Notes under the pieces: generated by a model
Seen by the model: only the letters and a program-made list of their open reading frames with translations
Databases searched by the model: none
What the model was told of the DNA's origin: nothing
Source of the DNA: a virus
Taxonomy: Duplodnaviria; Heunggongvirae; Uroviricota; Caudoviricetes
DNA: 64,000 nucleotides
Direction: 5' to 3' (one strand)
Virus record (IMG/VR): IMGVR_UViG_3300028800_000057
Shown here: piece after piece, positions 19,215 to 41,173 of the stretch
How the letters are laid out: each line of letters begins with the position of its first letter
Numbering within the stretch: position 1 is the stretch's first letter
Translations under genes and position numbers: made by a program

Positions 19215-19886
19215 TCATTGCTTATTCTTTCTTCTTGTGTGCCTTGTTGGGCTTACTAGGAGTTGCTTGCGCAAGTAGGCATCACACTCGCTCCTAGCTT
19301 CGTTGAGTTCAACTACTGGGTAGTTCTTGGAGCTGAATGCTGACACTATCAGGTGGGAGAACTCTTCGGGGAGCTTGGTTGGGAAGGCGAGCCAGTACCA
19401 CCCTTGGTACTTACCAAACCCTACCCGAAACGGTTTGATCTCTCCGACTACCACCTTGTCATTGAGAAGGAACTTGCCCCCGCACGGAGGGCTCAAGGTC
19501 GTTGACCGGCTCAGGTCAAGGGTATCCTTGACCCATGATAGCCAACGCCGTGGGCCATGCTTGGGCTTGCCTAGGCACTTCCGAACGTAATCTTCACAGT
19601 CGTCCTTGGCCTTCTTCGGGTCCTCTACAGGATGATTGCTGGTGTCCTTCTTTGGGATGTTCCCTTCTTGCTCGGCGATCCAGTACCATCCGTTGAACTG
19701 AACGAAACCTACTCGGAACGGAACAACCCGCGCAACTCTAACCTTCTGGTAGAATAGCTCGAACCCACGCGGGTTGCTCTTGTTCCATACCTCTAGCGGC
19801 TCTAACCGCCAAGCCATGAGCCTAGCTTTTGGCTGTATTCTCATGGGGCGAGTTACACCGTCATCAGGTAGCTGCAGCTTTGGCAC
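19215..19886 (-). CDS. hypothetical protein with internal duplication (PFRVGF..GWYW.A ... DC.DY.RK.L twice)
   Basis: two repeats within ORF. Confidence 0.5.
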   Translation of the reverse strand: MPKLQLPDDGVTRPMRIQPKARLMAWRLEPLEVWNKSNPRGFELFYQKVRVARVVPFRVGFVQFNGWYWIAEQEGNIPKKDTSNHPVEDPKKAKDDCEDYVRKCLGKPKHGPRRWLSWVKDTLDLSRSTTLSPPCGGKFLLNDKVVVGEIKPFRVGFGKYQGWYWLAFPTKLPEEFSHLIVSAFSSKNYPVVELNEARSECDAYLRKQLLVSPTRHTRRKNKQ

Positions 19887-20556
19887 GCATGGATGCGAGA
19901 AGAGCCTGAGCCTTGCTCTTCTGAAGCAAGGCTTCCGGGCTTGATTGCATCCCGCTGACTGCCTGGTTCAGCTCCTCACGGGCGACTGCTGACTTCTGTT
20001 GGGCCGCTTGAAGCGCTCCCCCGAGGTGAGTTGAGTCAACCCCAGTTGTCAGGTCCTGGACCTTCCGGACAGCGTTGAGGGCTTGAGTATCGGCCGTAGC
20101 TTGACTGACAGCTCGTCGAAGTTGCTGCAACTCCCTGACCATTATGGTGTGGCGCTCTTTCAACTTGTCCATGGTCACGGAAAGGAGCCGATGGTTCTCG
20201 AGTAGGGCTGCTTCTTGGGATTTGACGTCCTCTTGCTCTTCTTTCAGCTCGTTGACGTGAGCCGCCATTGGGATCTGGTCATCATCATTGGTGGGGTCCC
20301 CATCGTCCATATTGGCCTGAATAGCAGCCATGAACTCGTCAATGTGTTGCTGGATGGCCGCTACTTGCAGGTGCATGGCCTTGGCGGCCACATCAGCTCT
20401 GATGCACTCAGTGGATTCAGTCTGCATTGCTGCTTCCAACTCACGAATGAGCTGTTCATGCGCAGGGACTGAGTTAGCGTCAATGACCTTATCAAGTACC
20501 GAGTGAGCGCTCGCCTTGACGATCAAGGTTGCTTTCGAGAAAATGCTTAGTGCCAT
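19864..20556 (-). CDS. PspA/IM30 (phage-shock protein A / Vipp1) family coiled-coil protein
   Basis: N-terminus LSIFSKATLIVKASAHSVLDKVID..EQLIRELEAAM parallels PspA [24 protein letters not shown]..., all-helical about 230 aa. Confidence 0.65.
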   Translation of the reverse strand: MALSIFSKATLIVKASAHSVLDKVIDANSVPAHEQLIRELEAAMQTESTECIRADVAAKAMHLQVAAIQQHIDEFMAAIQANMDDGDPTNDDDQIPMAAHVNELKEEQEDVKSQEAALLENHRLLSVTMDKLKERHTIMVRELQQLRRAVSQATADTQALNAVRKVQDLTTGVDSTHLGGALQAAQQKSAVAREELNQAVSGMQSSPEALLQKSKAQALLASMRAKAAAT

Positions 20557-20588
20557 ACTGTTTTGCCTCTTGTTCTGTTGTTGAAGTT

Positions 20589-22580
20589 CTAGTCGTCGCT
20601 TGAGCTTGAATCATTGCTTGAGAAGTCGCTGTCACTTGAGGATGAGCTCGTGTCGACTGACTCACCACCAAATCCACCTCCGTCATCGTCATTGCTGCTG
20701 GTTTGGACTGACTCACCACCCCAACCACCTCGACGATTGTCATCATCGTCATCTGAGCGGCGGCTCTCACGACCACCACCATACCGACGATCCTCGTCTA
20801 GTTCTCGTCGAAGTTCACGATTCTCGGCATTGACTTCGATGTCGTTGAGGGCAAGGCCAAGCCCCAATCCAAGGCCAAGTCCAGAGTCGTCTCGGCCGTA
20901 GTTGTTGACCACTGTAGTGTGGGACACGTGACTGCTGGAGCGACTCGAGCCGCTGCCACCTGAGTAACCCGATGAGGGGCGATACGAGTTAGACGAAGGA
21001 CGTCGAGCATCCGCTAGCCGACGCATCAGTACTTGAACAGCATTGATTGCGTTGTTGATCTCAGACTCAGCAGCTCTAGCTAGTGTGACTTGTTGTTCAG
21101 CTGAGTCCCAGTTCTGAGTAAGAACTCCACTCTTGGCCAGAGCAATTGCTGACTGTCGTGCTTGGGTCCTTTGGATGACCACCGTACGTTGTTCAAGTGC
21201 TGGGAGTTCAGCGCCATCCCCGAAGGTTGTCCTAATTTGGCTGATGAGTGAGTCGAGGGTGACAAGCTTATCCGCTATCACGTACTGGTCGAGCCTGCTG
21301 ATATCCCCTTCGATCCGTTGCTTCCGAGAGTTTAGGTCATATACCTGCTGGGCGGCTCTCCTGGCTAGTATCGTTCCATCTTTGCAAACGTCGGTTACTG
21401 CTTGATATCTCTTCTCTTCCAGGTTCTTCTGGGCTTGCTCGAAGGAAGAGATCGCCTGCTGTAGGATGGCCCGGGGACCATCTACTTTCATGGATCTCTC
21501 TGCATTGATATTATTGGTTGCAATCTCGATTTCCTTAGCTAGGGCGTCGATGGTTGGTTGGGCTGAGTCACGTAGACGACTTATGCCTCGGATGGAGTTG
21601 GAGAGTTTGATAGCCTCGGCATCCACTCTCTCCAAGTTGGCTTGCACCCTTTCAAAGGTTGCAGTCATTGCATTGTAGGCATCAGCACTTAGGCCCACGC
21701 TTTCTGGGTCATTGGCGGAGCCAGTCATATTGACGTACTGACTCTTGGCCGAGTCCATATTGGACTTCAACGCTTCAAGTTGATCTTGTAGGGCCGAGAA
21801 CTCGGCAGGATTGATAGTCGTCTTGAGAGGGGCCAAGAGAACCCCAATGGTGGTCAGGTGGCTTTCAAACCCAGTGATTAGGTTGTTACAGGCGCCCCGA
21901 GTACCCTGAGCTTGTTGCTGAGCCGCGTCACGCTCCGACTTCGCCATTCGATATCGTATGAACAACCAGATCCCAGCCCCGATAACACCGGCAAGGAGCA
22001 GCCATTTCAGGAAGGAGAATCCTCCACTGAGGTCTGCTGGCTTCTCGTTGTGATTGACGATGGTGACAGGACCACTGGAGACAATGGCGTTCGCCTTCGT
22101 TGTCGACAGAAGGGTGTGGGTTCTGATGAGCCCAGCTTTGGCGGCGCCAGTCAGGTCCCCTTTACCAATAAGTCCGCCCATCTCCTCACCAATATCCACA
22201 ATCTTGTTGTGAGTGAGTACATTCTGGAAAGGGCCCTTCTTGGCGAACTGGACCGCAACCTTACCGTTGGGTTCGAGGATCAGCAGGAAGATGTTGCTCT
22301 TGAGGCGCCCGCCAGCTGACTGCCATGAGGGACACTTACTCAACAGAGCACCGGCGTATTTGTCAAGGTTCCCATATCTGTTCATCTCGTCTGTCGTGAT
22401 GACTCGAACGAGGGCTGGGTCCGCACCATCACCGGCGATCTTCCTGAGAAGAGGTTCGATCTCGGAGGCTTTGACTTTCCCTGTTGTATCAAAGACGGGG
22501 CTATTGCACTCGTCTGCAAGCGCCGGGCGCGCTAGGACTAGCACTAAGAGTGCTAGTATCACAGTGATCGATCTGATCAT
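20589..22580 (-). CDS. TPM-domain (YgcG-like) membrane protein with signal peptide, TM helix, long coiled-coil and Gly/Ser/Asp-rich C-terminal tail
   Basis: signal peptide; IFLLILEPNGKVAVQFAKKGPF resembles TPM core; TM GVIGAGIWLFIRY; GLGLGLGLGL and D/S/G tail. Confidence 0.6.
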   Translation of the reverse strand: MIRSITVILALLVLVLARPALADECNSPVFDTTGKVKASEIEPLLRKIAGDGADPALVRVITTDEMNRYGNLDKYAGALLSKCPSWQSAGGRLKSNIFLLILEPNGKVAVQFAKKGPFQNVLTHNKIVDIGEEMGGLIGKGDLTGAAKAGLIRTHTLLSTTKANAIVSSGPVTIVNHNEKPADLSGGFSFLKWLLLAGVIGAGIWLFIRYRMAKSERDAAQQQAQGTRGACNNLITGFESHLTTIGVLLAPLKTTINPAEFSALQDQLEALKSNMDSAKSQYVNMTGSANDPESVGLSADAYNAMTATFERVQANLERVDAEAIKLSNSIRGISRLRDSAQPTIDALAKEIEIATNNINAERSMKVDGPRAILQQAISSFEQAQKNLEEKRYQAVTDVCKDGTILARRAAQQVYDLNSRKQRIEGDISRLDQYVIADKLVTLDSLISQIRTTFGDGAELPALEQRTVVIQRTQARQSAIALAKSGVLTQNWDSAEQQVTLARAAESEINNAINAVQVLMRRLADARRPSSNSYRPSSGYSGGSGSSRSSSHVSHTTVVNNYGRDDSGLGLGLGLGLALNDIEVNAENRELRRELDEDRRYGGGRESRRSDDDDDNRRGGWGGESVQTSSNDDDGGGFGGESVDTSSSSSDSDFSSNDSSSSDD

Positions 22581-22957
22581 ATCTCAATTATGATTGGATT
22601 TACTCCAATCATTCCTTTCTTTGAGTTAACTTTTTTGGCCTTTGGGTGGGTACAATCCGGGCGATGCCCTTCAATCTTTTTGGCCCAGCACAGGTGACAG
22701 ACCATACCCATCGAACTTATTTGGTGAACCCACTCAGGCGGGTTACGCTTGATGGTAGTTGATTCGAAGTACCTCTCGCTCTTCCACTGAGCGGGGTTAT
22801 CGTTCCAAGATACAAGAGCCTTGCGCTCTTTTAGGTCAACCTCGATTACTCGGATCTTCCAGATCCCAAGCTCGGTCTTAGTGGTATGACCCACTTTGCG
22901 CCGGTGACAGTCGTAAATGGTATCCCCGGCTTTGAGACTAGTGAATGAAACAGCCAT
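22577..22957 (-). CDS. hypothetical protein
   Basis: ORF, ATGA overlap with TPM gene. Confidence 0.45.
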   Translation of the reverse strand: MAVSFTSLKAGDTIYDCHRRKVGHTTKTELGIWKIRVIEVDLKERKALVSWNDNPAQWKSERYFESTTIKRNPPEWVHQISSMGMVCHLCWAKKIEGHRPDCTHPKAKKVNSKKGMIGVNPIIIEI

Positions 22958-22959
22958 GG

Positions 22960-23466
22960 TTACTTCGTAGTGAGGTACTGGTAAACTCGGTATGGGATCT
23001 CGCAGGCTACTTCGCCATGCTGATCACAGATTTGGACCTTGCTGTTTCGTAGGGCCACGGGTTTACCAACGGGGATCATGATGGTCCAGGTATCTTCCAT
23101 GTCATTTAGCAAGTCCTCAAGTATCTGTTGAGGAGTCACATTCTTGGTCACCTTGCGCTTTGATGTCTTCTTGGGCGACTTTTTGGTTTTGGTGGGTGGG
23201 AAGGTCAGTTGTGGGATTGGCAGGTTAGCGTGAAGGCTACCGATTACCCTCTCCACAATGAGTTGGGCCCGACCTCTATCAGCGTACGTATCTGGCATGA
23301 CCGGGTGCTTACTTGAGTCAGAGTTGAGTACTTCCCTAGATCCCTTGAAGTACTCAACAAACCACCCGTGTCGCTTTTCAGTCGGCTCCCAGAGGGAAGC
23401 TTGGTACTCACCGATCAGCATCAAGATCTTGTTGCCTTGCTGGGTTACTGCAATCGCTTTATCCAT
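22960..23466 (-). CDS. hypothetical protein
   Basis: ORF. Confidence 0.45.
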   Translation of the reverse strand: MDKAIAVTQQGNKILMLIGEYQASLWEPTEKRHGWFVEYFKGSREVLNSDSSKHPVMPDTYADRGRAQLIVERVIGSLHANLPIPQLTFPPTKTKKSPKKTSKRKVTKNVTPQQILEDLLNDMEDTWTIMIPVGKPVALRNSKVQICDQHGEVACEIPYRVYQYLTTK

Positions 23467-23477
23467 TCCTCATATCC

Positions 23478-23687
23478 TTATCGGGCGTTCGTTCTACAGT
23501 ATTCGGTTCTGGCGTACATCTCGAAGCTACCGTTCAGGTGCAACGTCTCAGGTTCTAATTGAGCAGTACATACTCGACCTGATGACTTATTTGGGCACTC
23601 TGGGGCGCAAAATTGTCCTTGGGTTACAACTGAAGTGGATAGGGTGAGTCTCTTACGGGGTGGGGCTTGCTTGGGGAGTACTGACAT
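23478..23687 (-). CDS. small Cys-rich protein, YLRTEYC family member 3
   Basis: CAPEC...GRVC...EMYARTEYCRTNA. Confidence 0.4.
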   Translation of the reverse strand: MSVLPKQAPPRKRLTLSTSVVTQGQFCAPECPNKSSGRVCTAQLEPETLHLNGSFEMYARTEYCRTNAR

Positions 23688-23997
23688 TTTCGGCTCGCTG
23701 GATGTAGAGAGGGGTGTGTTCTTGGCCGATCAGAATACCCCACCGGTCACTGACCTCGTTCACGAAGGCAACCCAATCGTTTAGGGTTGGACCACTTTCA
23801 GGGTGGCGCGTGCATGCCTCTGGGTGCTTGACTGTACTATCGTCATTGGCTACCGCTACATACTCTCTGGAGACTGGGCAAAATCGTGCAACACAGACCC
23901 CTAAGTTCACCCAAACAGTTCGGCCATCCGAGGATATCTCGCCACAATCGTCTGGAAGTATTGTCCTAATCAGTTTTCTCCTACTCTTAAAGTCCAT
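23653..23997 (-). CDS. hypothetical protein
   Basis: ORF. Confidence 0.4.
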   Translation of the reverse strand: MDFKSRRKLIRTILPDDCGEISSDGRTVWVNLGVCVARFCPVSREYVAVANDDSTVKHPEACTRHPESGPTLNDWVAFVNEVSDRWGILIGQEHTPLYIQRAENVSTPQASPTP

Positions 23998-24076
23998 CGA
24001 TTATCCTTTACCCTCAACTTCCATCTACTCGAAACACAATAGAGCACAAATTCTGTCCTGATGATAGTGGCTCTCT

Positions 24077-24355
24077 TTATTTTCTTTGACCCACTACCCA
24101 AACCAAGCCAACAGCGAGTCGGTGCTTGCATTTGTGACCACTTTTGCTATCTGGGCAGGTACACGTTGAGGTTCTTGTCGCCGGATCAGCATAGACATAG
24201 TAAGTATCCGTACCTCCAGTGACTTCCCACGTCAGGTCACCTATCGGTTTGACTGTGCCTACTAGGCCAACGGCCCTGGATATCCTGGTCGCCAGGCTTG
24301 GGTGGGTCCGAGCCCAAATGCCAGCTAGTCTTTCAATGGCTTGGGTGCGATCCAT
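24077..24355 (-). CDS. SWIM zinc-finger protein
   Basis: CTCPDSKSGHKCKH = CxCxnCxH. Confidence 0.55.
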   Translation of the reverse strand: MDRTQAIERLAGIWARTHPSLATRISRAVGLVGTVKPIGDLTWEVTGGTDTYYVYADPATRTSTCTCPDSKSGHKCKHRLAVGLVWVVGQRK

Positions 24356-24361
24356 ACTCGC

Positions 24362-24393
24362 TATTACGCGCTGGCGTAATGAATCTCAACAAG
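24362..24393 (-). promoter_or_regulatory. conserved promoter-like motif copy 9 on minus strand (TTGTTGAG-N15-GCGTAATAG, cgagtATG leader)
   Basis: reverse complement exact, drives SWIM gene. Confidence 0.6.
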
Positions 24394-24413
24394 TTTTGGT
24401 GTAGTCAAAACTA

Positions 24414-24794
24414 ATGGACTTGGACCTTGAGCGATTTTGGGCAGTGGTGAGGCCCCATCGGAGAAAGCCAGCCCCAAAGCCAGTACCTGAGCCACGACGG
24501 AAGTCCGTCATTTGGATTCAGGCGGTCGAGTCTGGTAATATAACTTGCACAGATCGGATACGAGTACCACTCAGGGTGGACAAGAACAACAACTTACTTT
24601 GTGAACTAAGTTTTCCTGAACTTGATCGAGATGTTACGATTGTTGGGTTTCGAATGTACATTCGAGACAATACTCATGAGTTTAGGTACATTGAGTGTGC
24701 CCCGCGGGTCGTCATGCTGGGTGGTAGTATGAAGCTGAATCTCAGCATCGTGGATGATCTAAGCCTAATCAACCAGTTGATATCAATTCGATGA
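24414..24794 (+). CDS. hypothetical protein
   Basis: ORF. Confidence 0.45.
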   Translation: MDLDLERFWAVVRPHRRKPAPKPVPEPRRKSVIWIQAVESGNITCTDRIRVPLRVDKNNNLLCELSFPELDRDVTIVGFRMYIRDNTHEFRYIECAPRVVMLGGSMKLNLSIVDDLSLINQLISIR

Positions 24795-25294
24795 CTGAGT
24801 TTGTTGATCCACTTAAGATGGTTCGTAGCGTGTACAGTCACGTTGACTCTGAGAATCACGAGATCAACCTTGCTGATGACTCAAAGCGTCGGTGGTTCGG
24901 TTTCTCGTGCGTCGGCTGCAATGATGAGTACGTTACCTGGCAATGCTCGGGCAAGGCGTTGGGGTGCCTCATGGTCTATGAACATCCCGGTGAAGACCAG
25001 CTGCTGCTCAAGTTGGTGAGTACTCAAGCTGGTAGAATCTCTATTCGAGATGCGCTCAATCGACTTGTACAATTTAGGGTGACAGCAAAGATCTTCTCTC
25101 AGATGAAGTCTAACGCTGTACATGCTTCAAACCCACTTGATGACCCTAGTACTGAAGTTGAGATCCTCGAAGACATGCTTATGGACGATGCTGCTAGACT
25201 AACCACTTCAAGTGATAAGACCCTAATCAATTCATTGAAGACTAGCTTTCGCAATAACATCCCGAGTCGTTACAACCGGAGACCTGTGATATGA
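24791..25294 (+). CDS. hypothetical protein with C-terminal SRYNRRPVI tail
   Basis: ORF; tail family. Confidence 0.5.
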   Translation: MTEFVDPLKMVRSVYSHVDSENHEINLADDSKRRWFGFSCVGCNDEYVTWQCSGKALGCLMVYEHPGEDQLLLKLVSTQAGRISIRDALNRLVQFRVTAKIFSQMKSNAVHASNPLDDPSTEVEILEDMLMDDAARLTTSSDKTLINSLKTSFRNNIPSRYNRRPVI

Positions 25295-25905
25295 GCTACC
25301 CGCTCGCTGGGTACTACTGGGTTCAGTACAACAATAAGGAGAAGACAACCTTCATTGCGCGTCTATCCTGGTCAGAGGGTGCTGGTATCTGGTCTGTCTT
25401 TGGGCATGGTGTCGAAGTACCGCTTGACTCATTTACAATCCTTGAGGGGCCCTTACAGTGCTCGGTGACTAAGCCTCCCGCCAAGGAAGACTTACCTACG
25501 CGCCAGGAGAGGGTACTCAAGAGCTTTGAACCCATCGAGCCCTTGGGCCATGAGCGAGAGCCAGACGACCCAGCTACCTTGGAAGAGATTCTGGCCTGCT
25601 TCACAGGACGTGGTGGGACCGTTACGATCAATGCTGTTGACTTCTGTGCAATTCGTGAGGCTCCAGCCGGTAGGTTTCAACCAATTACCACGAGAGATCT
25701 GTTGATGACTGGGTGGGTTGCTACCCTCGATGAAGTACTTTCGATTTATGTATCTCGCAGAATCCCTGTTGGTTATTACTACTGGGGCTACCACCCAGAG
25801 CTCCATGCTAGGTACGTAGATGGTATGGGGATTCAACCACACTTAGACTCCCAAACCATTCGTCAGGTCCAACGAGGCTTGGAGCCCTTCTTGTCTCAAC
25901 CCTAG
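25291..25905 (+). CDS. hypothetical protein, copy 1 of tandem paralog pair (TINAVDF...GYYYWGYHPELHARY)
   Basis: ORF; homologous to downstream copy. Confidence 0.5.
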   Translation: MSYPLAGYYWVQYNNKEKTTFIARLSWSEGAGIWSVFGHGVEVPLDSFTILEGPLQCSVTKPPAKEDLPTRQERVLKSFEPIEPLGHEREPDDPATLEEILACFTGRGGTVTINAVDFCAIREAPAGRFQPITTRDLLMTGWVATLDEVLSIYVSRRIPVGYYYWGYHPELHARYVDGMGIQPHLDSQTIRQVQRGLEPFLSQP

Positions 25906-25929
25906 AACCTTGATAGCTTTGTCTTAAGT

Positions 25930-26452
25930 GTGAAGCCTGTCGACCCCATTGGAAGACGTGAGAAGAACCTAGAGCGTGTAGCGCTTAGGCACGGTCTTAC
26001 CTTCTACCTGGATGGACATTACATTGTGAAAACCAATGGATGGGAAGGAGAGCTCCGCGAGGCGACCGATGAAGAGATTCAGATGTGGTCGATCTTGTGT
26101 CCTGAAGACCCCGATCACCTAATTGCAAGCGTTGAAGAGGTTCGTGCTTGCTGGACTGAACGAAAAGGACCATTCACCATCAACGCACGTGACTACCACA
26201 GCTTGAAAGGGTGCGGTCGAGAGTTTGAACCAGAGAAAAGAGGACTTGATACAAGGGCTCATCGGGGAGTATATTGGTAAGAAGGTCTATGTTTCTAAAG
26301 CTATACCTATTGGGTTCTTCTATGAAGGGGATCACATCCCTGCCCTACATTGGTATCCAGTCCGAGGGAACTTCGACCCAGAACCAGAGCTCTCTGCTGA
26401 AGTCGAGTTACAGGTGTGGAACACTCTGTACCCGTTCAAGTTGAGTGGGTGA
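25930..26452 (+). CDS. tandem paralog copy 2, split between two frames at an A-run near 26233-26245 (track ORFs 25930..26280 and 26225..26452); same frame as copy 1 across a single TAG
   Basis: homology of both fragments to copy 1; no ATG at start. Confidence 0.35.
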
Positions 26453-26769
26453 TGTCTGATAAATCCGACCCTAGCAGAGAAGTTACCTTGGAGGAGTTGG
26501 ATTCTACCTATCTAATGTACGTAGAGAATCAGCTAAACCACCTTCTTGGGTGTATTACCAGCCCTCAGCACTCTCATCGAGTTGAAGTCATGGTATTGAA
26601 CATGATCAATACGAGAGACAAGATTGAGGAACTCAGGAAGAAAGCGGTAGCCGGTAAGCTAACTCTAGGTGAGGCGATCCAGCACTTCAAGGTTGAAAAG
26701 AAGAAGAGGAAACCTCGCCGACGCAAGGTGCTAACTCGATACGAGAGGGTGATCAAAAACTTCTTGTAA
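26416..26769 (+). CDS. hypothetical protein with C-terminal TRYERVIKNFL tail
   Basis: ORF; tail family. Confidence 0.5.
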   Translation: MEHSVPVQVEWVMSDKSDPSREVTLEELDSTYLMYVENQLNHLLGCITSPQHSHRVEVMVLNMINTRDKIEELRKKAVAGKLTLGEAIQHFKVEKKKRKPRRRKVLTRYERVIKNFL

Positions 26770-26787
26770 CGTTCCCATGACAAGAAC

Positions 26788-28765: not shown

Positions 28766-29020
28766 ATGGATTTTGGAGTGGCTTTCGGACTACTACATGA
28801 AGGCAAAGCAATAAAACGAAGTACCTGGGATTGTTGGATCGAGATACGAGATCTACCAGCTCACCGAGAGTCACTACCAGCGGACAGCTTTGAGATTGGT
28901 ACCTTCTTAGTACTAATCCAACCGACTGGTAACTACACACGTTGGACACCATTCGACCAAGACTTGCTAGCTAGGGATTGGGAGGAGACGCCAACTCTAG
29001 CTAAAGACCTCGTGGTGTAA
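28766..29020 (+). CDS. hypothetical protein
   Basis: ORF. Confidence 0.4.
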   Translation: MDFGVAFGLLHEGKAIKRSTWDCWIEIRDLPAHRESLPADSFEIGTFLVLIQPTGNYTRWTPFDQDLLARDWEETPTLAKDLVV

Positions 29021-31093: not shown

Positions 31094-32383
31094 ATGGAAA
31101 GCCAGATCGTACTAGGGGATTGCAGAGAGGTCCTCAAGTCCCAACCTGACAACGTCTTCGATTCAGTGGTGACAGACCCCCCCTCAGGGATCAAGTTCCT
31201 TGGGCTCGAGTGGGATACTTTCAAACCGACCGAGGATGAGGAGGGGGTAGAGGGGCGCGCTGAGCTGCTGGCCTTCCAGAACTTCCTAGCTGTATCCTTT
31301 CGAGAGGTCTACCGAGTCCTCAAGCCTGGTGGGTTCGGATTGGTCTGGGCGCTCCCGCGCAGTAGCCATCATACGAAGATGGCCCTAGAGCGCTGCAGGT
31401 TCGAGATTAGGGACACCCTGTACCATATCTTTGGCCAAGGGTACAAGAAAGGGACTGATGTCAGCAAGGAGCTCGAGACTCTAGGGGACATTGAGTTGGC
31501 GGAGAGGTGGTTGGGCTACCACACAGGATTGAAGCCAGCTGTCGAGGAGTGGGTGCTCGTCCGTAAACCACTCGAAGGTACGGTCGTCGACAACATCCGA
31601 AAGTATGGGGCTGGAGCTCTAAATATTGATTCTTCCAGAGTTTTCACTGATTGGGATGAACCTGACCGACCCGATACTTGGAAGAATAGCGGTCACACCT
31701 CGAAACCAGAAGCGGTAAAGGTTGCAGCTCCGCCGGGGAACGGAATCAATTGCCACCCGCTCGGAAGGTGGCCCTCTAATCTTATCCTATCCCACTGTCC
31801 TGATTGCAAGCGTATCGGGACCAAGGTCATCAAAGGAGACCCGCGCGGTAACTGCAAGGGGACCCGTCCAGGGGGTTTCTATGCTCCAGGATCAGACTCA
31901 GGTGATGGGAAGCCAAACGCCTATGTCTACGGAGACCAGGAGCTACCGATCTACGAGTGCGTTGAGGGTTGCCCAGTGGGTATCTTGGATAGAAATGGGA
32001 GCAACTCTCGGTACTTCAAGACATTTGATCCAGACCCAGAAGCCAACTTCATCTACCAAGCGAAGCCGTCACCTTCGGAGAAGAATGCTGACTTGGATGA
32101 GGGCCTCGTCAATGAACACAAGACTGTTAAGTCGTTGAAGTTAATGTCTTATCTGGTCCAACTAGTAACTCCCCAAGGCGGGAGAGTACTTGACCCATTC
32201 GCGGGATCCGGTACTACTTTGGTTGCGGCTGCAGAGCTAGACTTCGGGTTTCTGGGTATCGAGAAGGACCCTAAGACTTGGCCTGTTATTCAAAGTCGGG
32301 TGGCCAATGTCCTCAAGCGTATTGAGCTGGCGCGAGAGAAGCTAGCTGGGTTCAATGCAATGTTCGAACTGGAGAGTGAGTGA
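31094..32383 (+). CDS. DNA methyltransferase (N6A/N4C beta-class) with variant motif IV DPPS, C-terminal FELESE
   Basis: FDSVVTDPPSG ... DPFAGSGTT (motif I). Confidence 0.75.
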   Translation: MESQIVLGDCREVLKSQPDNVFDSVVTDPPSGIKFLGLEWDTFKPTEDEEGVEGRAELLAFQNFLAVSFREVYRVLKPGGFGLVWALPRSSHHTKMALERCRFEIRDTLYHIFGQGYKKGTDVSKELETLGDIELAERWLGYHTGLKPAVEEWVLVRKPLEGTVVDNIRKYGAGALNIDSSRVFTDWDEPDRPDTWKNSGHTSKPEAVKVAAPPGNGINCHPLGRWPSNLILSHCPDCKRIGTKVIKGDPRGNCKGTRPGGFYAPGSDSGDGKPNAYVYGDQELPIYECVEGCPVGILDRNGSNSRYFKTFDPDPEANFIYQAKPSPSEKNADLDEGLVNEHKTVKSLKLMSYLVQLVTPQGGRVLDPFAGSGTTLVAAAELDFGFLGIEKDPKTWPVIQSRVANVLKRIELAREKLAGFNAMFELESE

Positions 32384-33849: not shown

Positions 33850-34413
33850 ATGAGTACCATAGAGTGTTTCTTTCTGAGGCCAGCTGCTTTTGCTCAAGAA
33901 ACCCTAAGGAGGTTCTCACTCTCGAATGACTCCAGTGCTTGTCCTATCACTGGATATCACACTTGCTCTGTAGACATAAACGTCGTCCCCTTCGAGCTAT
34001 CCGACCTTGACGGTAAGCCAGGTGAAGGCATTGATCATGATGACCCACGCTGGCCTACCTCTTGTGCTTGCGGGTATCAGTTCGAACCTGAGGATCAATG
34101 GCAGCATCAGCTAACTAGATTGTATTGGAGATCTGATCACCTAGCCATGAGGACAACTCTTCAGAAAGCTCCCGTGGGGTCTATGTATTACGCAGATTGG
34201 TACGATTGGAAGGGGCCCGATAACCACTGTCTAGTCGTTATTACTCCTGGTGGGCCATGGGTTGTAGATGGGCCGTCATCTAATGGGAACGGAACTAAGG
34301 GAAATCCTTGGACTCGTACTGGTGAAGTCCCAAGAGTTACTGCTAACCCAAGTATTCACTTTCCCGGTCAATACCACGGGTGGTTGCGCAATGGGGTCCT
34401 AGAAGAGTGCTAA
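33850..34413 (+). CDS. hypothetical protein
   Basis: ORF. Confidence 0.45.
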   Translation: MSTIECFFLRPAAFAQETLRRFSLSNDSSACPITGYHTCSVDINVVPFELSDLDGKPGEGIDHDDPRWPTSCACGYQFEPEDQWQHQLTRLYWRSDHLAMRTTLQKAPVGSMYYADWYDWKGPDNHCLVVITPGGPWVVDGPSSNGNGTKGNPWTRTGEVPRVTANPSIHFPGQYHGWLRNGVLEEC

Positions 34414-34493
34414 AGAGTGTCTAAGGGTGTGGGTGGTTAGTTGAGGGAGAAGTATCTGTCTATGCCGGGACATAGGAAAGGAGAACCGCACCT

Positions 34494-36346
34494 ATGCCCC
34501 ACAGCAACCCAAACTTCTATGATGCCATTGTTACTGGTATCACTAGCAGTCAGGATCACTGGTCCTCAGGATCCTTCCCGAATTCCTACATCACGCACGT
34601 TGCTCAAATTATCTACAATGCTATCTCTCCTAGCACTAGTAGCAACATTGACGCTGAAGCTGAGCTCCTTCAGTCAATCGTCGGCGGGTTGTTCTCAACC
34701 AACCACCTAATACCGTCACTCGACCCAAGCTACAACACCATTGCAGTAGCAATTAACAATCTATTTCAACAAGTAAGAAGTACGCTTGATGGGATATCTT
34801 CCGGGGGTGGGATCGCTACTGGACTTCAAACCTCAGCGCTAATACCGGTCAGTATATCAGGAGCTGCGCCCCCTGCTGCTGGACAAGTGCTGACTGCTAC
34901 CTCTAGTACCACTGCCGATTGGGAGAATTCTGGGGGTGGCGTTACATTAGCTACAACAACTCCTGCATCAGAAGCTGTCGGTGGTGCAGGTGCTGTCGGG
35001 GTTGGGACAACTGCTGCTCGAGACGACCACATCCATCCGATGCCCGCCTTTGGAACGACTACAGGAACGTTCTGCCAAGGTAACGACTCGAGGTTGGTAA
35101 CTATCTCAGGATCAACCCCTGCATCAGAAGTAGTTGGTGGATCTGGGGCTGCAGGGTCAACCGGTCATACATCAGATGCTGGGCACATTCATCCAATGCC
35201 CGCCTTTGGAACAACTGCAGGAACCTTCTGCCAAGGTAACGACACCAGGTTTATCAGTATCTCAGGGTCAACCCCTGCATCGGAAGTAGTTGGTGGATCT
35301 GGTGTTGTAGGGTCAACCGGGCATGCATCAGATGCTGGTCATGTTCATCCAATGCCAGCTTTCGGAACGACTACAGGAACGTTCTGCCAGGGGGTGATGC
35401 TCGACTCTCAGATGATAGGACGGCTTCTGGAATCAGAACCGCAACTACAATAGTCTCAGTAGCCTCTGCGGCTGCTCCTTCAGCTGGTCAAGTTCTTACC
35501 GCTTCCTCTGATACTGTTGCTGCTTGGGTTACACCATCAGGTGGCGGTGGTGGTACTTTCCCAGGAACTTACACCTATGCCACACTACCAAGTGCAGCTA
35601 GTGCTGGGGTTGGGGCTCAACAGATTGTGTCAGATGTCCCAGATTGTACTTTCATATCAGATGGAACAGTTTGGCAGCCATTCTGCAGTGGGGTCCTTGT
35701 AGTTCCACCAGCTATCCCAGTTTCAGCACTTACTGCTTACGGTGCGTCAACTTCAAATACTACCCTTACGCAAGAGGGGCCATTTTGGAGACTTACAACG
35801 TCAGAGCAGTTGAATCAAGTACTTCACGCATGGCTTGTTGGGCCCTTAGCGAAAGATGGCAGCGGTCAGTACACCATCGAAATCGGCATTGACTCTTCAG
35901 ATACTTTACTGATTCAACCCTTTGGTACACTTGGGATATACACTGATGATGCTGTAAGCCAGGGTTGTAGTTGGTTCTGGTACAATCAAGGCACTACCCT
36001 AGCTATTTCAGCACACTATTATTCTACAATACCCAGTTATGCTTCCGCTGCTGGCGCTGTTTCGATGGGCTTAGCACCAAGAGTCAAGTTTCTACGCGTT
36101 GGGTATATAGCATCATCGAATGTAACTACCGTTGATGTATCAACTAATGGTACTGACTGGTTTAGGATTTTCAGCAGCCCCAACAGCTGGTTCTATAACT
36201 TTGGGGCCCCAACGACGTTTACTAGGTTTGGAATTGATATCGATTGTTCCAATAACAACAACCTCGCCGCTGGTTCAAGCAGAATGTCAGCACGTATTTG
36301 TCATTTTGTGCAGACGGCAGGGCCGCCACCTGCCCCTGTACTATAA
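34494..36346 (+). CDS. tail-fibre-like protein with HIHPMPAFGTTxGTFCQGND repeats; reading frame shifts -1 at a G5 run near 35388-35394 (track ORFs 34494..35453 and 35627..36346 are one gene)
   Basis: frame-2 translation upstream of 35627 is stop-free back to about 35330 and carries APSAGQVLTASSDTVAAW, which is also in 36827..37639. Confidence 0.5.
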
Positions 36347-36353
36347 CCACTGA

Positions 36354-36797
36354 CTATCGTGGCCAGGGATCAGCTCGCCGGAGACCGCACTTGTTGTCTC
36401 CGGTTACCTCTGGTTCCTCGAAGTTGTGGTTACGCCCGTTGTACAGAGTCTCACCGGTTAGCTTCTGGTACTGATCAACCCAAGCCCTAGCTTGACGCTC
36501 TTGGTTTGGATTGATTCTACCCGCTTGAAGGAGTGCTGATACCTTCTGAGGGCTGATTCCGTAGAACGGATTACCCCTCTGTGACTCTAGCAACGGATGA
36601 TCATCGTGGTCACCTGGCATCCGTGCAGTAAACAACGGGTTCTGTGGAGGTAGAACATACCGTTCATCTTCAGTAACTCGGTCATTTGCGTGATCTCGAA
36701 GGGTTGGGTTGTTATCTTGACCCCCTGAGAATAAGTCACGGATGTTTTTGGTAACAGGCATAGAGCTAAGTGTACCTTCAACTTCTGAGGACCACAA
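36354..36797 (-). CDS. hypothetical protein
   Basis: ORF. Confidence 0.4.
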   Translation of the reverse strand: MWSSEVEGTLSSMPVTKNIRDLFSGGQDNNPTLRDHANDRVTEDERYVLPPQNPLFTARMPGDHDDHPLLESQRGNPFYGISPQKVSALLQAGRINPNQERQARAWVDQYQKLTGETLYNGRNHNFEEPEVTGDNKCGLRRADPWPR

Positions 36798-36826
36798 CCC
36801 TGGTTGAAGTTCTTATGCCGCGGTAG

Positions 36827-37639
36827 TTGAGTATGACTACCGAAAGGTTTGCCAACAAGGCTATCACGACCCTCAATGGTGGGATTAACGGGGTTGTAAC
36901 CTCTTTGGTGGTTACTGATGCCTCCGAGTTCCCCACCCTACCACAATTTAGAGTGCTAGTTGAGGATGAGCTCATGCTAGTGACTGGGGTCAGCGGAGTT
37001 AGCTTCACTGTTCAAAGAGGATTAGAAGGAACACTGAACGTACCCCACGCCAATGGGGCTGCAGTAACTCATATTTTGACTGCTGGGGCACTATCAGAAA
37101 TTTCAGCCTCTGGACTCAGGACAGCAACGACAGTAGTTGATGTATCAGCGTCCACTGCACCATCACCAGGTCAAGTTCTTACCGCTTCCTCTGATACTGT
37201 TGCTGCTTGGGCAACCCCAACACCAGGTAGTACCCTCGTAACCACTCAGTTTGATATTGACCTCACCACAACAGCGAATACTGCGATAGATACTCGTCCA
37301 TCGACTCCGACAGGACCTGGTCGATGGAAGTTAAAGTCGATTGACCTCCGATTAAAGGTCGCTATTACAGGGGTTGGTACCCCTAGTTCAGTTCTCAGTA
37401 TTGGGGCAGTCTCTGGTGAGCAGCAGATAGTTGTTGATCAGACAGTAACTGACTCATCAACTGTTGGTTCAAGTGTTGGAGGGTTTGCTCTTGGGACCTT
37501 GGGGTTTGATATGAGCCAATCCACTGGCTTTGAAGCCATGTATCCGGCTGGTCAAGCAATTTACGCAAATGTAACTCAATCAGGAAACCCTGCAACTGGT
37601 ACAGTAACCGCTTACTTGCTCTGGCAAGGGCTGCCGTGA
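36827..37639 (+). CDS. tail-fibre-like protein (fibre N-terminal-domain-like start, Thr/Ser/Gly-rich)
   Basis: composition, shared module with 34494..36346. Confidence 0.45.
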   Translation: MSMTTERFANKAITTLNGGINGVVTSLVVTDASEFPTLPQFRVLVEDELMLVTGVSGVSFTVQRGLEGTLNVPHANGAAVTHILTAGALSEISASGLRTATTVVDVSASTAPSPGQVLTASSDTVAAWATPTPGSTLVTTQFDIDLTTTANTAIDTRPSTPTGPGRWKLKSIDLRLKVAITGVGTPSSVLSIGAVSGEQQIVVDQTVTDSSTVGSSVGGFALGTLGFDMSQSTGFEAMYPAGQAIYANVTQSGNPATGTVTAYLLWQGLP

Positions 37640-37825
37640 TGGTGTAGTCCACCTATGAAGTTCATCTGCCACCCCGTCGTCGATGATAAAGGGAACGCCA
37701 TCAAGTGGCGTATCGAGGGTGGCGACCGGAGGTACCGTGGGGTTTTCCTCGAGGCCCTGAAGGACCGAGTTCGCCTGGAGTACCCAGACGCTGAATTCGA
37801 TGAAGGTGACCCAGTCTCTTGGGGC

Positions 37826-38515
37826 TCAAGCTTCTAGGGCTTCGATCGACTTGCGGATGTTGATCTGAGCCAGGTGCTCGTAGGAGCTGAAGCGCATCTC
37901 GGGGGTGGAGTAGAACGGGTCCCGAAGGAACCGCTTGAGTATGCTCGCGCGCCCCTTACGGTAGGCTTCGAGCTCCACAAACTGATACTCCAGACGGATG
38001 TCTCCCTCATACTTAACAAATTGGTCCAGACTCTCACCGAAGATGGCCAGGTCGATGTCATGGAGGATCATCTCCTCGCGCGTCTTGGGCTCTCTCGTGT
38101 ACTGACTGAAAAGTATTAGGTCACGGATCTTAGCACTGACCGGTGATGGGACTTGAAGCATGCGCTCCACACGAGATTGACCAATGTTCGCGCTCTGAAC
38201 CTCGTTGTCCCGTGCAGTCGGGTCATATACAAAGTCATGATACCAGAACGTCAATTCAAGGGTTATGCTCGGCTCCTGGAAGAATCGATCGTAGACTTCG
38301 AACATATGACGGAGGTGATCCCTCACATGGTAGTACCGACCTTTACCACTGTACGCCCCAAGGATCTCCTCAATCAAACTCGGGCTGGCTCCCTGAGCCT
38401 CAGCTCTCTTTAGGGTAGTTTCCCATCGAGATAACAGGTAGGCGGTAGTACTCACTCTACTATTGTGCCACATTTGAAGGGTCCAGACAAATAAAAAGGG
38501 CTTGGTTTGCACCAA
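37826..38515 (-). CDS. HD-domain phosphohydrolase
   Basis: YHVRDH ... WYHDFVYD ... LHDIDL (H..HD..D). Confidence 0.55.
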   Translation of the reverse strand: MVQTKPFLFVWTLQMWHNSRVSTTAYLLSRWETTLKRAEAQGASPSLIEEILGAYSGKGRYYHVRDHLRHMFEVYDRFFQEPSITLELTFWYHDFVYDPTARDNEVQSANIGQSRVERMLQVPSPVSAKIRDLILFSQYTREPKTREEMILHDIDLAIFGESLDQFVKYEGDIRLEYQFVELEAYRKGRASILKRFLRDPFYSTPEMRFSSYEHLAQINIRKSIEALEA

Positions 38516-38523
38516 GCCCTTTT
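38486..38523 (-). terminator. rho-independent terminator after flotillin gene (stem AAAGGGCTTGGT/ACCAAGCCCTTT then T-run on minus strand)
   Basis: 12-bp stem, TTTTTATTT tract. Confidence 0.65.
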
Positions 38524-38543
38524 CAACTAACGATTACCGACTA

Positions 38544-40481
38544 CTAGGTTGTAGCTGGCTTGTCAGTCTTCTTACCTATCATCTTGCCAACTGAGGATGC
38601 GATCTCGTTGACTGCGCCCATGGTCTTCTGAACAGTCTCGACCGTGGAGGCGTCTGCGCCGGCCAAGAACCCACCGAAGGCCTGGGAGAGGCCCATGCCC
38701 GCGTTGAAGTGCTGGGACATCTTGGCGACGTCCTCAGGGGTACCGTAGACGTTGGCTTGGATCTTTCCGTAGAACTGGGCAGTCGCTTTGGCCGACTCGA
38801 TTCTGACCAGGGCTTCTTGGGTGATTTGGAGTTTGGCCAACTCGAAGTTCTGAGCCGCCTCACCGTTGGCTGCACGAGCTTCTAGTTCAGGCTTGAGGAC
38901 CTCTTCAACTCGTTGCTTGTCGATCTGGACCTCGCGAGCCTTGACCTCGACAGGGACCATGGCCAGAGCTTTCTGACCCTCAGCAGCAGCTAGCAGCTTG
39001 GCTTTCTCACCGTCAGCTTGGGCAATGAGGGTTGCCTTGTTACCAGCGGCTTGAAGTTCTGCTGCTTTCGAATCTGCTGTTGCCTTCTTGGTTGTAGCTT
39101 CAGCATCCGCATCAGCCGATGCTTTGCGCGCCTCAGCCTCTTTCATGGTCCGATAGGCGCCGGCATCAGCGGTCCTCTGGGCGGTTACATAGTTCTTCTC
39201 AGCTTCACCTTGAGCCGCAATAACTGCCTTCTGCTTCTCTCGGTCTGCTGCAGCAACTACCTCTACCGTTTGGATATTCTGACGAGCCTTCTGTCGGTCA
39301 GCTTCAGCATCCGCTAAGAGGGCTTCCGCCTTGGCTTTCTCGGCTTCAGATCCAGCAATGGCTTTCTGTTGGTCCCGCTTGGCGACTTCCACCTTCTGTT
39401 CAGCAACCACGATGGCTTGCTGTTGCTGACGCTTGGCAACCTCGACGGCCTGTTCTTGAGAAACCTTGGCAAGGATTGTCTGTTGTGCGTTCTCGGTTGC
39501 AGCCACATCGATTTTCCGTTGAGCTTCGATCTGGCTTTGCTTACCAATGCGTTCCTGCTCAGCTTGAATTGAGAGTACTTGAGCCGACTGATTCGCTTCA
39601 GCCTCAGCTTGCTTCCTCTCCAGCTCTAGGATCTGAGTTCGTGTCTGAACGTCCTGATCCTTTCGAGCTTGCTCACCGGTGCGGACGATGGTGTTCCTCT
39701 CGGTGAGGTTCTTCTGAGTGATTTCCGCAATGGTTCTCAGCCCTTGGGCGTCGAAGATGTTATCATTTTTCAGGTTGGTAATATCGGTCTGATCCAACTT
39801 GGAGATGGTGACTGTTTCAAGGAGGAACCCGTTGTGCTTCAAGTCCGCAGTGACCCCCTCCACAACTTCCTTCAAGAACTCATCTCGGTCGCTGTTTAGT
39901 TGTTCTAGGGTCTTCTTGGCAGCACTCGTGCGCAGAGCTGATACCAGCTTGTCTTCAATGAGGGCCGCTACACTCGACTCATAGGACCGTCCGTCAGACT
40001 TTCTTTGTTGTTGAGAATTCACATTGACTTCGCTCATCTTGTCACCAAGGGAACGGGCTGCTGCTTTGATATCCTCATCCGAGGCTTGTACCCGAACGTA
40101 GAACTCAGCTTGGACGTCGGCGCGCAACTTATCACTGGTGATGAGAGCATCGGCCCCAATACGTTGTACTGGCAACTTGATGGTCTCAAGGGACACTCGA
40201 ACTATCTGGTGGATGACAGGGAGGATAACCTGACCACCATCTCGAATGACCTTCAACCCGCCCATGCCAGTCTTGACAAAGGCCTCACTTGCCTTTGTTT
40301 TGACATACAACTTGGTGATTACGAGAAGTGTTACGCAGATCAGAACCAGCGTGATTCCGCTGATAGTCATGATGACGGAGGACACCCCCGGTACATGGTG
40401 CGTTGTGAATGTGTTTACTGCTATTGGACTGGCAATTAGAGCTATCCCAAAGAGCAACAGAAAAAATAGACCTATACCCAT
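38544..40481 (-). CDS. flotillin-like SPFH/band-7 protein (YqiK-like) with N-terminal TM and long Ala/Glu/Lys/Gln coiled-coil
   Basis: TM helices, SPFH-like VIRDGGQVILPVIHQIVRVSLETI, extended EA-repeat coiled coil. Confidence 0.7.
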   Translation of the reverse strand: MGIGLFFLLLFGIALIASPIAVNTFTTHHVPGVSSVIMTISGITLVLICVTLLVITKLYVKTKASEAFVKTGMGGLKVIRDGGQVILPVIHQIVRVSLETIKLPVQRIGADALITSDKLRADVQAEFYVRVQASDEDIKAAARSLGDKMSEVNVNSQQQRKSDGRSYESSVAALIEDKLVSALRTSAAKKTLEQLNSDRDEFLKEVVEGVTADLKHNGFLLETVTISKLDQTDITNLKNDNIFDAQGLRTIAEITQKNLTERNTIVRTGEQARKDQDVQTRTQILELERKQAEAEANQSAQVLSIQAEQERIGKQSQIEAQRKIDVAATENAQQTILAKVSQEQAVEVAKRQQQQAIVVAEQKVEVAKRDQQKAIAGSEAEKAKAEALLADAEADRQKARQNIQTVEVVAAADREKQKAVIAAQGEAEKNYVTAQRTADAGAYRTMKEAEARKASADADAEATTKKATADSKAAELQAAGNKATLIAQADGEKAKLLAAAEGQKALAMVPVEVKAREVQIDKQRVEEVLKPELEARAANGEAAQNFELAKLQITQEALVRIESAKATAQFYGKIQANVYGTPEDVAKMSQHFNAGMGLSQAFGGFLAGADASTVETVQKTMGAVNEIASSVGKMIGKKTDKPATT

Positions 40482-40525
40482 TTTGATTTACATCTTTCCC
40501 CCTGCGAGAGCAGGGTTTAATAAAC

Positions 40526-41173
40526 TCACCCACCAATGGTGGGATCAACAACTATTGTGTACACATCAAGAGCTTCGTTGTATTCGAAGGTTAGAATTGG
40601 AGTGCCTTTGGCAATAGGCTTGTCCGACCTGCATTGGATTTGGTAGCGGTCCCCACTCCTATTCGTGATTTGAGCTACCCCACCAGTACTGTCACAAGCT
40701 AGGGTGACAGTTCCAATACACCCAATGAGGTCTACCTTCTTCACTGAATCGGTTTCAGTGGTGGGCATGAACTTACCCACGGTTCGACTCACGAAGGCAG
40801 TACCAAAGAACATCGTGATGGAGGCAACGGCTACTGAGATAAGAGCGAACCCACTCCACACCTTGATGAGTGCTCCGAGTATCGTGTTCATGCAGATCCC
40901 AGTACCTGCAAATATCAAGGACAGAGACATGAATGAGATGGCAAGTGGTACCCTCCCAAACCCTAGGAAGCCAAGTAACCAACTCCCCTGTCCCTCCCCA
41001 TCCTGATCCCCTTCAGCGTCATGATCCCCGTCTAGGTGAAAGTCACCGTGGATGTCCCCATGAACCCCTACGTCGTGACCAGCACCTGAAAACCCGACTC
41101 CAAGTACGGATAGTATTCCGATTGCCAGCGGGATGTAGAAGATCAGATTATACCACTTGAAAAAGTCAGACAT
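40526..41173 (-). CDS. NfeD-like membrane protein (YqiJ-like) with His-rich segment and C-terminal OB-fold
   Basis: TM segments, GHDVGVHGDIHGDFH, C-terminal PIAKGTPILTFEYNEALDVYTIV. Confidence 0.6.
   Translation of the reverse strand: MSDFFKWYNLIFYIPLAIGILSVLGVGFSGAGHDVGVHGDIHGDFHLDGDHDAEGDQDGEGQGSWLLGFLGFGRVPLAISFMSLSLIFAGTGICMNTILGALIKVWSGFALISVAVASITMFFGTAFVSRTVGKFMPTTETDSVKKVDLIGCIGTVTLACDSTGGVAQITNRSGDRYQIQCRSDKPIAKGTPILTFEYNEALDVYTIVVDPTIGG

Follow-up and report, generated by a model that had tools for sequence, protein, structure and literature searches.

A close described counterpart of the genes considered here is the Bacillus subtilis pspA-ydjGHI (samGHI) operon, in which PspA is encoded beside YdjH, a TPM-domain membrane protein with a low-complexity/coiled-coil C-terminal part. 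YdjH binds both PspA and the SPFH protein YdjI, which need it to reach the membrane (PMC8581546). It is a conserved PspA partner in the Bacillus ydj operon and is thought to be the anchor of PspA (PMC11237479, PMC8581546). PspA itself counters proton leakage, and Band-7/flotillin and YqiJ/YuaF proteins are its recurring partners or neighbours (PMC11237479). The present analysis concerns a 64,000-nucleotide stretch of viral DNA (IMG/VR record IMGVR_UViG_3300028800_000057), referred to below as the window, which carries on its minus strand a TPM-PspA gene pair and, about 16 kb away, an NfeD-flotillin gene pair. The original prediction, made from the DNA sequence alone, had proposed that these genes form a phage-borne membrane-stress module and that PspA, SPFH and TPM genes are known genomic partners; the literature cited above bears the latter out. 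The window is probably an accessory region of an uncultured huge (~440 kb) bacteriophage, equipped with two separately transcribed membrane-maintenance gene pairs of kinds known from bacteria.

Two gene pairs on the minus strand

The four open reading frames (ORFs) were found on the strand and at the coordinates given by the original prediction. Together with their domains and the hairpin that follows the second pair, they are as follows (aa, amino acids; TM, transmembrane).

20589..22580, minus strand: TPM-domain membrane protein, 663 aa, termed TPM-CC (ORF and 24-member family alignment)
22515..22580, minus strand: predicted Sec signal peptide of TPM-CC, aa 1-22, with a conserved A-x-A end (PALA before, DEC after the predicted cleavage site; hydrophobic segment aa 1-25)
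22086..22514, minus strand: domain of TPM fold spanning aa 23-165 and expected in the periplasm; Cys25 and Cys83 are invariant (AlphaFold2 and Foldseek)
21954..22019, minus strand: single TM helix, aa 188-209, followed by basic residues (hydropathy scan and alignment)
21006..21947, minus strand: conserved helical region, aa 212-525, predicted to be cytoplasmic, of no known family (alignments)
20592..21005, minus strand: low-complexity Gly/Ser/Asp/Arg tail, aa 526-663, with two conserved GFGG-x-S motifs (alignment)
19864..20556, minus strand: divergent PspA/IM30 protein (bacterial ESCRT-III type), 230 aa, starting 32 nt downstream of the TPM-CC gene
40526..41173, minus strand: YqiJ-type NfeD-like inner-membrane protein, 215 aa, with about three TM segments, a His/Asp-rich loop and a C-terminal soluble domain
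38544..40481, minus strand: YqiK/FloT-type flotillin, 645 aa, starting 44 nt after the end of the YqiJ-like gene
38492..38525, minus strand: intrinsic-terminator-like hairpin with a 15-bp stem, a 4-nt loop and a T-run, 19 nt past the flotillin stop codon

The two pairs are separate transcription units, because ~16 kb of mostly plus-strand genes, including a methyltransferase, a papain-like protease, a Tad2-like ORF and two tail-fibre-like ORFs, lies between them. The clean terminator that had been described after the flotillin gene is present as the T-tailed hairpin 38525-38492. The region holds no more terminator-like sites than chance alone would give, and this hairpin has by far the longest stem among them. 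Scans for sigma-70 promoters gave results at or below chance and were left unused.

Identity of the four proteins

The assignments of the original prediction to the PspA/IM30, TPM, SPFH/flotillin and YqiJ-type NfeD families were all confirmed by profile and fold searches, those of PspA and TPM by remote-homology methods. The layout of TPM-CC, in which a signal peptide, a globular TPM domain and a TM helix are followed by a helical region of ~310 aa and a Gly/Ser/Asp/Arg tail, is an architecture typical of TPM proteins, with YdjH-type partners described in PMC11237479. Direct comparisons were empty: at E<=1, PF04536 matched neither the window protein nor any of its 23 close homologues, scans of Pfam, NCBIfam and PHROG and a phmmer search of the PDB gave nothing for TPM-CC, and a profile of its N-domain found nothing among PDB sequences. 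The AlphaFold2 model of the N-domain (aa 23-185), which reached a mean predicted local distance difference test score (pLDDT) of 85.9 and a predicted TM-score (pTM) of 0.78, was submitted to Foldseek against the PDB. All matches at ranks 1-7 were TPM-domain structures with a probability of 0.99-1.00, and the next ones did not exceed 0.25. The top match was BA41 (5anp; E 6.4e-5; TM-score 0.62-0.71), and the others comprised cg2496 (2kpt), BA42 (2lt2 and 4oa3), PG_0361 (2kw7) and LMTP1 (9h70). Moreover, the TPM-CC family is homologous along almost its whole length to a 677-aa protein of Candidatus Uhrbacteria (hhalign probability 100%, E 6.5e-55, 589 columns), the alignment running from the TPM domain through the TM helix and the helical region into the tail. 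This cellular protein passes the PF04536 (TPM_phosphatase) cut-off with 28.1 bits against 22.1.

The signal peptide with its A-x-A end, the invariant Cys25 and Cys83, the single TM helix and the basic residues behind it point to a topology in which the TPM domain would be periplasmic, whereas the helical region and the tail would face the cytoplasm, which is the side of PspA. The cytoplasmic placement of the C-terminal part is suggested by the basic residues after the helix. In the family alignments A20 and A22 vary little or not at all, and cleavage of the signal peptide there is presumed. The helical region is conserved between the phages and a bacterium of the candidate phyla radiation (CPR), and Cys, Asp-Pro, Tyr and Trp occupy positions in it that do not vary; its invariant residues include C231, D291-P292, Y302, M305, C399 and W491. 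It matches no Pfam family, and its profile matched only generic coiled coils in the PDB, for example Sec2 at 1e-4. The MIT domain of VPS4 binds ESCRT-III tails in eukaryotes, and a comparison of the helical region with it was non-significant (E 0.4-0.7), being kept as a lead only. The possibility that the region is a second PspA-like domain was rejected (hhalign E 0.1). In the tail, G621, G622, S624, G638, G639 and S641 are invariant in the 24-member alignment.

The PspA assignment was reached in a similarly indirect way. The window protein matched nothing in PF04012 even at E<=10 and nothing in NCBIfam or PHROG; phmmer against the PDB returned no PspA or Vipp1, and a profile of the 33-member close family found there only generic coiled coils, with no PspA or Vipp1 among them. 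PF04012 was matched individually by 8 of the 33 close homologues (best 1.6e-10). When the family profile was run against 1.84 billion representative proteins, 264 matches were obtained at E<=1e-3, nearly all of them ~230 aa long and aligned from end to end, and PspA_IM30 (PF04012) was matched by 117 of the 140 more distant representatives that were scanned (best 1.9e-21). A widened profile that includes the window protein reached Vipp1 (6zvr) at 4.9e-15, with residues 2-226 aligned to 1-217, and E. coli PspA (4whe) at 6.8e-6. The AlphaFold2 model, with a pLDDT of 69 overall and above 85 in the hairpin, contains predicted helices at 3-11, 17-27, 30-84, 88-173, 180-201 and 207-227, a layout resembling that of ESCRT-III-type proteins, with an N-terminal amphipathic helix, a long helical hairpin and shorter C-terminal helices. 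Its five best Foldseek matches in the PDB were Vipp1/PspA assemblies, at E values of only 1.3e-2 to 4.8e-2. The N-terminal helix (LSIFSKATLIVKA...) was aligned by hhalign with E. coli PspA (E 6.5e-4). Judged from the profiles and the model, the 230-aa protein is a true but strongly diverged PspA/IM30, which agrees with the original description of a TPM-domain membrane protein with a Gly/Ser/Asp tail followed by a PspA/Vipp1-family protein.

The second pair was accessible to direct searches. The YqiJ-like protein matched Pfam YqiJ_N (PF21001) over residues 16-120 (1.1e-7, 32.5 bits against a cut-off of 23) and was aligned by BLASTP with E. coli YqiJ to residue 192 (E 1e-6) and with its orthologue in the cultured Sinorhizobium phage Phosso (469 kb, PV764938.1) to residue 183 (E 7e-11). 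The Phosso orthologue has the YqiJ_OB domain, and alignment with the orthologues suggests that the window protein may also end in an OB-fold. The flotillin gene follows directly, in the order known from E. coli yqiJK and Phosso. Its product begins with an N-terminal membrane hairpin (hydrophobic segments at aa 1-27 and 30-63, the membrane anchor), followed by an SPFH domain and a putative extended coiled coil rich in Glu and Ala, the last two as in the original prediction. It matched Pfam Band_7 over residues 61-256 (8.3e-6, 26.4 bits against a cut-off of 23.6) and E. coli YqiK with 31% identity over 491 columns (BLASTP, E 3e-58), the alignment running through the coiled coil to residue 506. 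The NCBIfam FloT match was weak (E 7.8e-4, far below the cut-off), and Pfam Flot (PF15975) was not reported for the window flotillin but is present in the Phosso orthologue. At least 2023 homologues were found at E<=1e-10, many of them named flotillin or YqiK by their sources, and the nearest named cellular ones come from metagenome-assembled genomes (MAGs) of Myxococcota (50-53% identity).

Conservation of the pairs

Purifying selection acts on all four genes, the ratios of nonsynonymous to synonymous substitution rates (dN/dS) being 0.05 for PspA, 0.06 for the flotillin, 0.12 for the YqiJ-like protein and 0.14 for TPM-CC. These values, obtained from orthologues at dS ~0.9-1.6, establish that the genes are real. 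The TPM-CC gene followed by the PspA gene, with a gap of 27-32 nt, is found in the window and in the related contigs L014 and L016 despite differing neighbour genes; in the latter two the gap is 27-28 nt and PspA is 54-60% identical to that of the window. The original prediction had treated the minus-strand span from 22957 to 19215 as one operon. The order TPM then PspA within it holds, but the span as a single functional unit was rejected, since in L014 the pair stands alone and the orthologues of the flanking window genes (114, 69, 168, 223, 82 and 121 aa) form one uninterrupted operon of their own, 4 kb away. The two-gene TPM-PspA pair is therefore the conserved unit, and the longer operon is a local arrangement. 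Comparison of the window (18608-23997, minus strand) with L014 (14622-16761) places the split of this operon between the 168-aa and the 223-aa genes, where a 126-aa ORF and the TPM-PspA pair lie. As the operon is whole in L014 and split in the window, the pair behaves as a movable cassette. The 223-aa ORF next to it (19215-19886, minus strand) has no family match, contains an internal duplication (FRVGFVQFNGWYWIAEQ and FRVGFGKYQGWYWLAF) and is conserved in relatives with a dN/dS of ~0.08.

Contigs of equal size, about 12 of them, occur in both the TPM-CC and the PspA sets of homologues. Homologues of TPM-CC and of the flotillin are both found on contigs of 36.6, 107.8 and 435 kb, of which those of 36.6 and 107.8 kb are also among the PspA homologues, and in L014 a flotillin gene lies 7 kb from the TPM-PspA pair.

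Genes surrounding the pairs

Further features of the window are given below.

18970-19218, minus strand: small single-TM protein, co-oriented with and downstream of the TPM-PspA pair
28766-29020, plus strand: Tad2-like ORF of 84 aa (PF11195, anti-Thoeris; precomputed gene tables)
31094-32383 and 60687-62024, plus strand: two N6/N4 DNA methyltransferases (phrog_67), paralogues of one another, in both of which a large insertion separates the Pfam domain halves
34494-35453, plus strand: tail-fibre-like ORF (PHROG tail/tail-fibre, E 7.8e-5) with threefold HxHPMPAFGTTxGTFCQGND repeats
36827-37639, plus strand: tail-fibre-like ORF (PHROG tail/tail-fibre, E 2.5e-6)
48349-48421, plus strand: the sole tRNA, anticodon CTA, which reads the amber stop (ARAGORN label tRNA-Pyl; Rfam tRNA 60.6 bits)
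48422-49342, minus strand: ADP-ribosylglycohydrolase (Pfam E 1.6e-66)
49481-51118, plus strand: Ro60/TROVE and vWA protein (phrog_850 'RNA-binding protein', E 4e-36)
51959-53797, minus strand: 612-aa protein with many AWDGxxHMYV...G.V.RI.I.SG.VD repeats and weak beta-propeller matches only
53770-55176, minus strand: 468-aa Thr/Gly-rich protein without a family match, its start overlapped by the 612-aa repeat protein

The ORFs of the window are short (median ~166 aa), dense and mostly unannotated, and most have no Pfam match. Those with PHROG or Pfam matches include, in addition to the listed methyltransferases, which are of phage type, and the Tad2-like, Ro60-like, ADP-ribosylglycohydrolase and tail-fibre-like proteins, a P22 Ant, an IF-1, a peptide deformylase, a dCTP deaminase and a NUDIX protein. 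The Tad2-like ORF is situated between the two membrane pairs, in a region resembling a host-takeover/anti-defence island. Both tail-fibre-like ORFs share a P..GQVLTA.S.T.A.W motif and are the only virion-type genes seen; the 612-aa repeat protein and the 468-aa Thr/Gly-rich protein may be receptor-binding or tail-associated. The genes for the Ro60/TROVE protein and the ADP-ribosylglycohydrolase adjoin and flank the suppressor-type tRNA, which directly abuts the latter. TAG is the stop codon of 26 of the 94 long window ORFs, including the TPM-CC and flotillin genes; as TAG is still a common terminator, any recoding would be partial or stage-specific.

Proposed role during infection and alternative explanations

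The diverged but intact gene pairs suggest, by analogy with the bacterial systems, that the virus looks after the host inner membrane during infection. TPM-CC would be exported by its signal peptide, with the TPM domain in the periplasm and the single helix fixing the protein in the inner membrane, and would expose its conserved helical region of ~310 aa and the Gly-rich tail to the cytoplasm. Like YdjH in Bacillus, it could then serve as a membrane anchor or sensor, perhaps as a regulator, which brings the phage PspA to the cytoplasmic face of the host inner membrane. There PspA would polymerise and seal the stressed or leaky bilayer, so that the proton-motive force is kept. SPFH scaffolds control membrane fluidity and organise membrane proteins, and the YqiJ/NfeD-like protein and the flotillin may assemble such a scaffold in the same host membrane. 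The purpose would be to hold the host membrane intact and energised through the long infection of a huge phage until the phage itself triggers lysis. A rough probability of 0.6 is given to this reading.

Several observations weigh against it. The window PspA and TPM-CC both fall below the Pfam thresholds and were assigned through transitive profiles and models, and the PspA model is only moderate (pLDDT 69; Foldseek E ~1e-2). No OB-fold match was obtained for the YqiJ-like protein with YqiJ_OB (PF07290) or NfeD (PF01957) in Pfam at E<=10, or in PDB sequences. TPM domains have no agreed biochemical activity, and a phosphatase/nucleotidase role is disputed even for characterised members (PMC11237479), nor is there a consensus on catalytic residues. 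The two pairs lie 16 kb apart, and in L016 no flotillin gene was found at less than 10 kb from the TPM-PspA pair, so that joint action of the pairs is only conjectural. As regards the phage origin, neither the window nor the 6 kb walked to its left, where only small unannotated genes lie, showed a capsid, portal or terminase gene, and a 23.5-kb query compared by megablast with 50,697 phage records had no match.

A broader proposition, that a clade of ~400-kb phages has long kept a private ESCRT-III-type membrane system and actively uses it for a new counter-defence or for phage-specific membrane structures, rather than carrying passenger stress genes, is in our view doubtful. The specific counter-defence idea states that the modules neutralise abortive-infection effectors or competing phages that permeabilise or depolarise the inner membrane, the damage being outpaced by repair; it is a narrower version of the membrane-maintenance reading. 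The ability of PspA to counter proton leakage (PMC11237479) would suit it, and the region is rich in candidate takeover or anti-defence genes (Tad2-like, ADP-ribosylglycohydrolase, NUDIX, two DNA methyltransferases, Ant and Ro60-like). No known anti-defence protein, however, acts by such repair, the CPR versions are plain cellular stress genes, and no tie to a particular defence system turned up, PADLOC and anti-defence libraries not having been searched. We consider this explanation unlikely.

Control of lysis or superinfection, in which the proteins would modulate the timing of holin triggering or alter the membrane against DNA entry by later phages, is quite unlikely. The inner membrane is the site of action of all four proteins, and the small single-TM protein at 18970-19218 is a co-oriented downstream neighbour in the window, but this small gene sits in a different operon in L014. 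Moreover, no holin, endolysin or spanin gene was identified beside either pair, and no antiholin or exclusion protein is known from these families.

It is similarly improbable that the window comes not from a phage but from a bacterial chromosome, from a megaplasmid or from some other large extrachromosomal element, the four genes then being ordinary cellular envelope-stress genes. This explanation draws on the capsid, portal and terminase genes not seen in the stretch covered, on the empty megablast, on an almost empty tblastn search of GenBank phages with eight concatenated window proteins, which returned three weak unrelated matches, and on the cellular location of homologous TPM-PspA pairs. 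Against it, the two relatives with 91% identity are viral contigs of IMG/VR (UViG), and the same or related proteins occur on contigs of 392, 435, 442, 443 and 465 kb, sizes that cluster at 392-465 kb. The short, largely unannotated ORFs, the tail-fibre-like, P22 Ant, Tad2-like, phage-type methyltransferase, peptide deformylase and dCTP deaminase PHROG matches and the lone suppressor-type tRNA argue in the same direction, and an Rfam scan of the window found one tRNA and no rRNA or other cellular RNA. With the flotillin pair of the cultured phage Phosso added, the phage origin on which the original prediction depended is strongly supported but not proven. Of the two outcomes that would have refuted that prediction by its own terms, failed profile searches or a contig of bacterial chromosome, neither was encountered.

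Some jumbo phages start infection inside membrane-bound vesicles. An equivalent role here, in which the ESCRT-III-type PspA would work with its anchor and the flotillin scaffold to bud off or shape vesicles or compartments for genome protection or replication, is very improbable, for although PspA and Vipp1 are membrane-remodelling proteins of the ESCRT-III superfamily (PDB 6zvr title), no homologues of genes of nucleus-forming phages were noticed and the cellular TPM-PspA pairs suggest maintenance, not compartment building. Sequence data cannot separate the narrower versions (counter-defence, lysis timing, superinfection exclusion and phage membrane structures) from one another.

Maintenance of the host membrane remains the preferred reading. 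The retention of PspA, its partner and the flotillin-NfeD pair under strong purifying selection points to active viral management of host membrane integrity, a barely studied side of infection biology; PspA is itself named after the host's response to phage. The TPM-PspA pair, which is minimal, self-contained, very diverged and present also in CPR bacteria, offers a clean system for studying how a TPM protein recruits or regulates an ESCRT-III-type PspA, and the flotillin-NfeD half is open to experiment through the homologous pair of Phosso.

Comparison with known systems

Like the B. subtilis operon, the window encodes PspA beside a TPM-domain membrane protein and includes an SPFH protein, the counterpart of YdjI in the B. 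subtilis network (PMC11237479, PMC8581546). The gene order is nevertheless reversed, with TPM first in the window, and no YdjG-like zinc-ribbon/NTF2 protein was seen there. YdjI is soluble and encoded in the same operon, whereas the SPFH protein of the window is a membrane-anchored flotillin of YqiK type, encoded in a separate unit 16 kb away with its own NfeD. The proteins of the two systems are too diverged for direct sequence detection.

The pairs of CPR bacteria are nearer in organisation. Candidatus Uhrbacteria (CAWIHE010000004.1) and Paceibacterota (JAGOQO010000004.1) have the same two genes in the same order and of similar sizes, 677-779 aa and then 234-237 aa. The Uhrbacteria PspA, on a 1.02-Mb MAG contig with the 677-aa TPM protein directly before it, is the closest cellular relative among those looked up, and in the Paceibacterota MAG a 779-aa TPM protein and then PspA are encoded beside rpoBC. 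In contrast to the phage pairs, those of CPR bacteria are chromosomal, the Uhrbacteria intergenic gap is 141 nt as against 27-32 nt, and the proteins, only ~25-30% identical to those of the phages, pass the Pfam thresholds that the phage ones do not. Of two GTDB genome scans with the TPM-CC alignment, the first found nothing and the second only the Uhrbacteria contig again. On a contig of Candidatus Komeilibacteria type (L025, 5065-7659), a CPR PspA homologue is followed by an 864-aa protein with major-vault-protein shoulder and Vault_3 matches. We take the shoulder domain to resemble the SPFH fold, and this contig may hold another PspA-SPFH pairing.

In E. coli yqiJ-yqiK and B. subtilis yuaF-floT, as in the window, an NfeD-like gene is followed after a short spacer by a flotillin gene. 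The window flotillin is ~90 aa longer than theirs, having one more hydrophobic segment at its N-terminus and a more extended Glu/Ala-rich region, and Pfam Flot and YqiJ_OB were undetected in the window proteins. In its genes 491-494 (355001-359181), phage Phosso carries homologous yqiJ-like (31% identity) and flotillin (35%) genes in the same order (491-492), followed by XpaC-like (PF10112) and TelA 'toxic anion resistance' genes. This second membrane/stress pair of Phosso echoes the terD-pspA-like neighbourhood of the Jug phages. No PspA or TPM-CC homologue was found in Phosso by tblastn, and the eight other window proteins were unmatched there too; the window is therefore not a relative of Phosso, as the eight-protein search gave only weak unrelated matches.

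Earlier reports on phages concern parts of this set. Band 7/SPFH ORFs were listed in 2006 in the T4-like phages 44RR, Aeh1 and RB43 (PMC1524935), and in the huge gut 'Jug' phages a 'pspA-like gene' beside terD is transcribed in vivo (PMC12880540). Both reports deal with single genes in passing, and neither describes PspA with a dedicated TPM anchor, or that combination together with flotillin-NfeD; a broad review of jumbo phages makes no mention of any of these families. Proteins of TPM fold (COG1512) occur in a few uncultured phage entries, and annotated SPFH/flotillin genes in Phosso and in one crAss-like phage. TPM-CC had no tblastn match among GenBank phages. The window PspA had none in the 50,697 phage records, and the Uhrbacteria and E. 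coli PspA found in them only two unannotated faecal fragments. PspA is thus nearly absent from GenBank phages.

Summarizing, the components and their pairings are those of known bacterial systems, and what is new is a clade of huge phages that carries them, in diverged form, as a conserved set.

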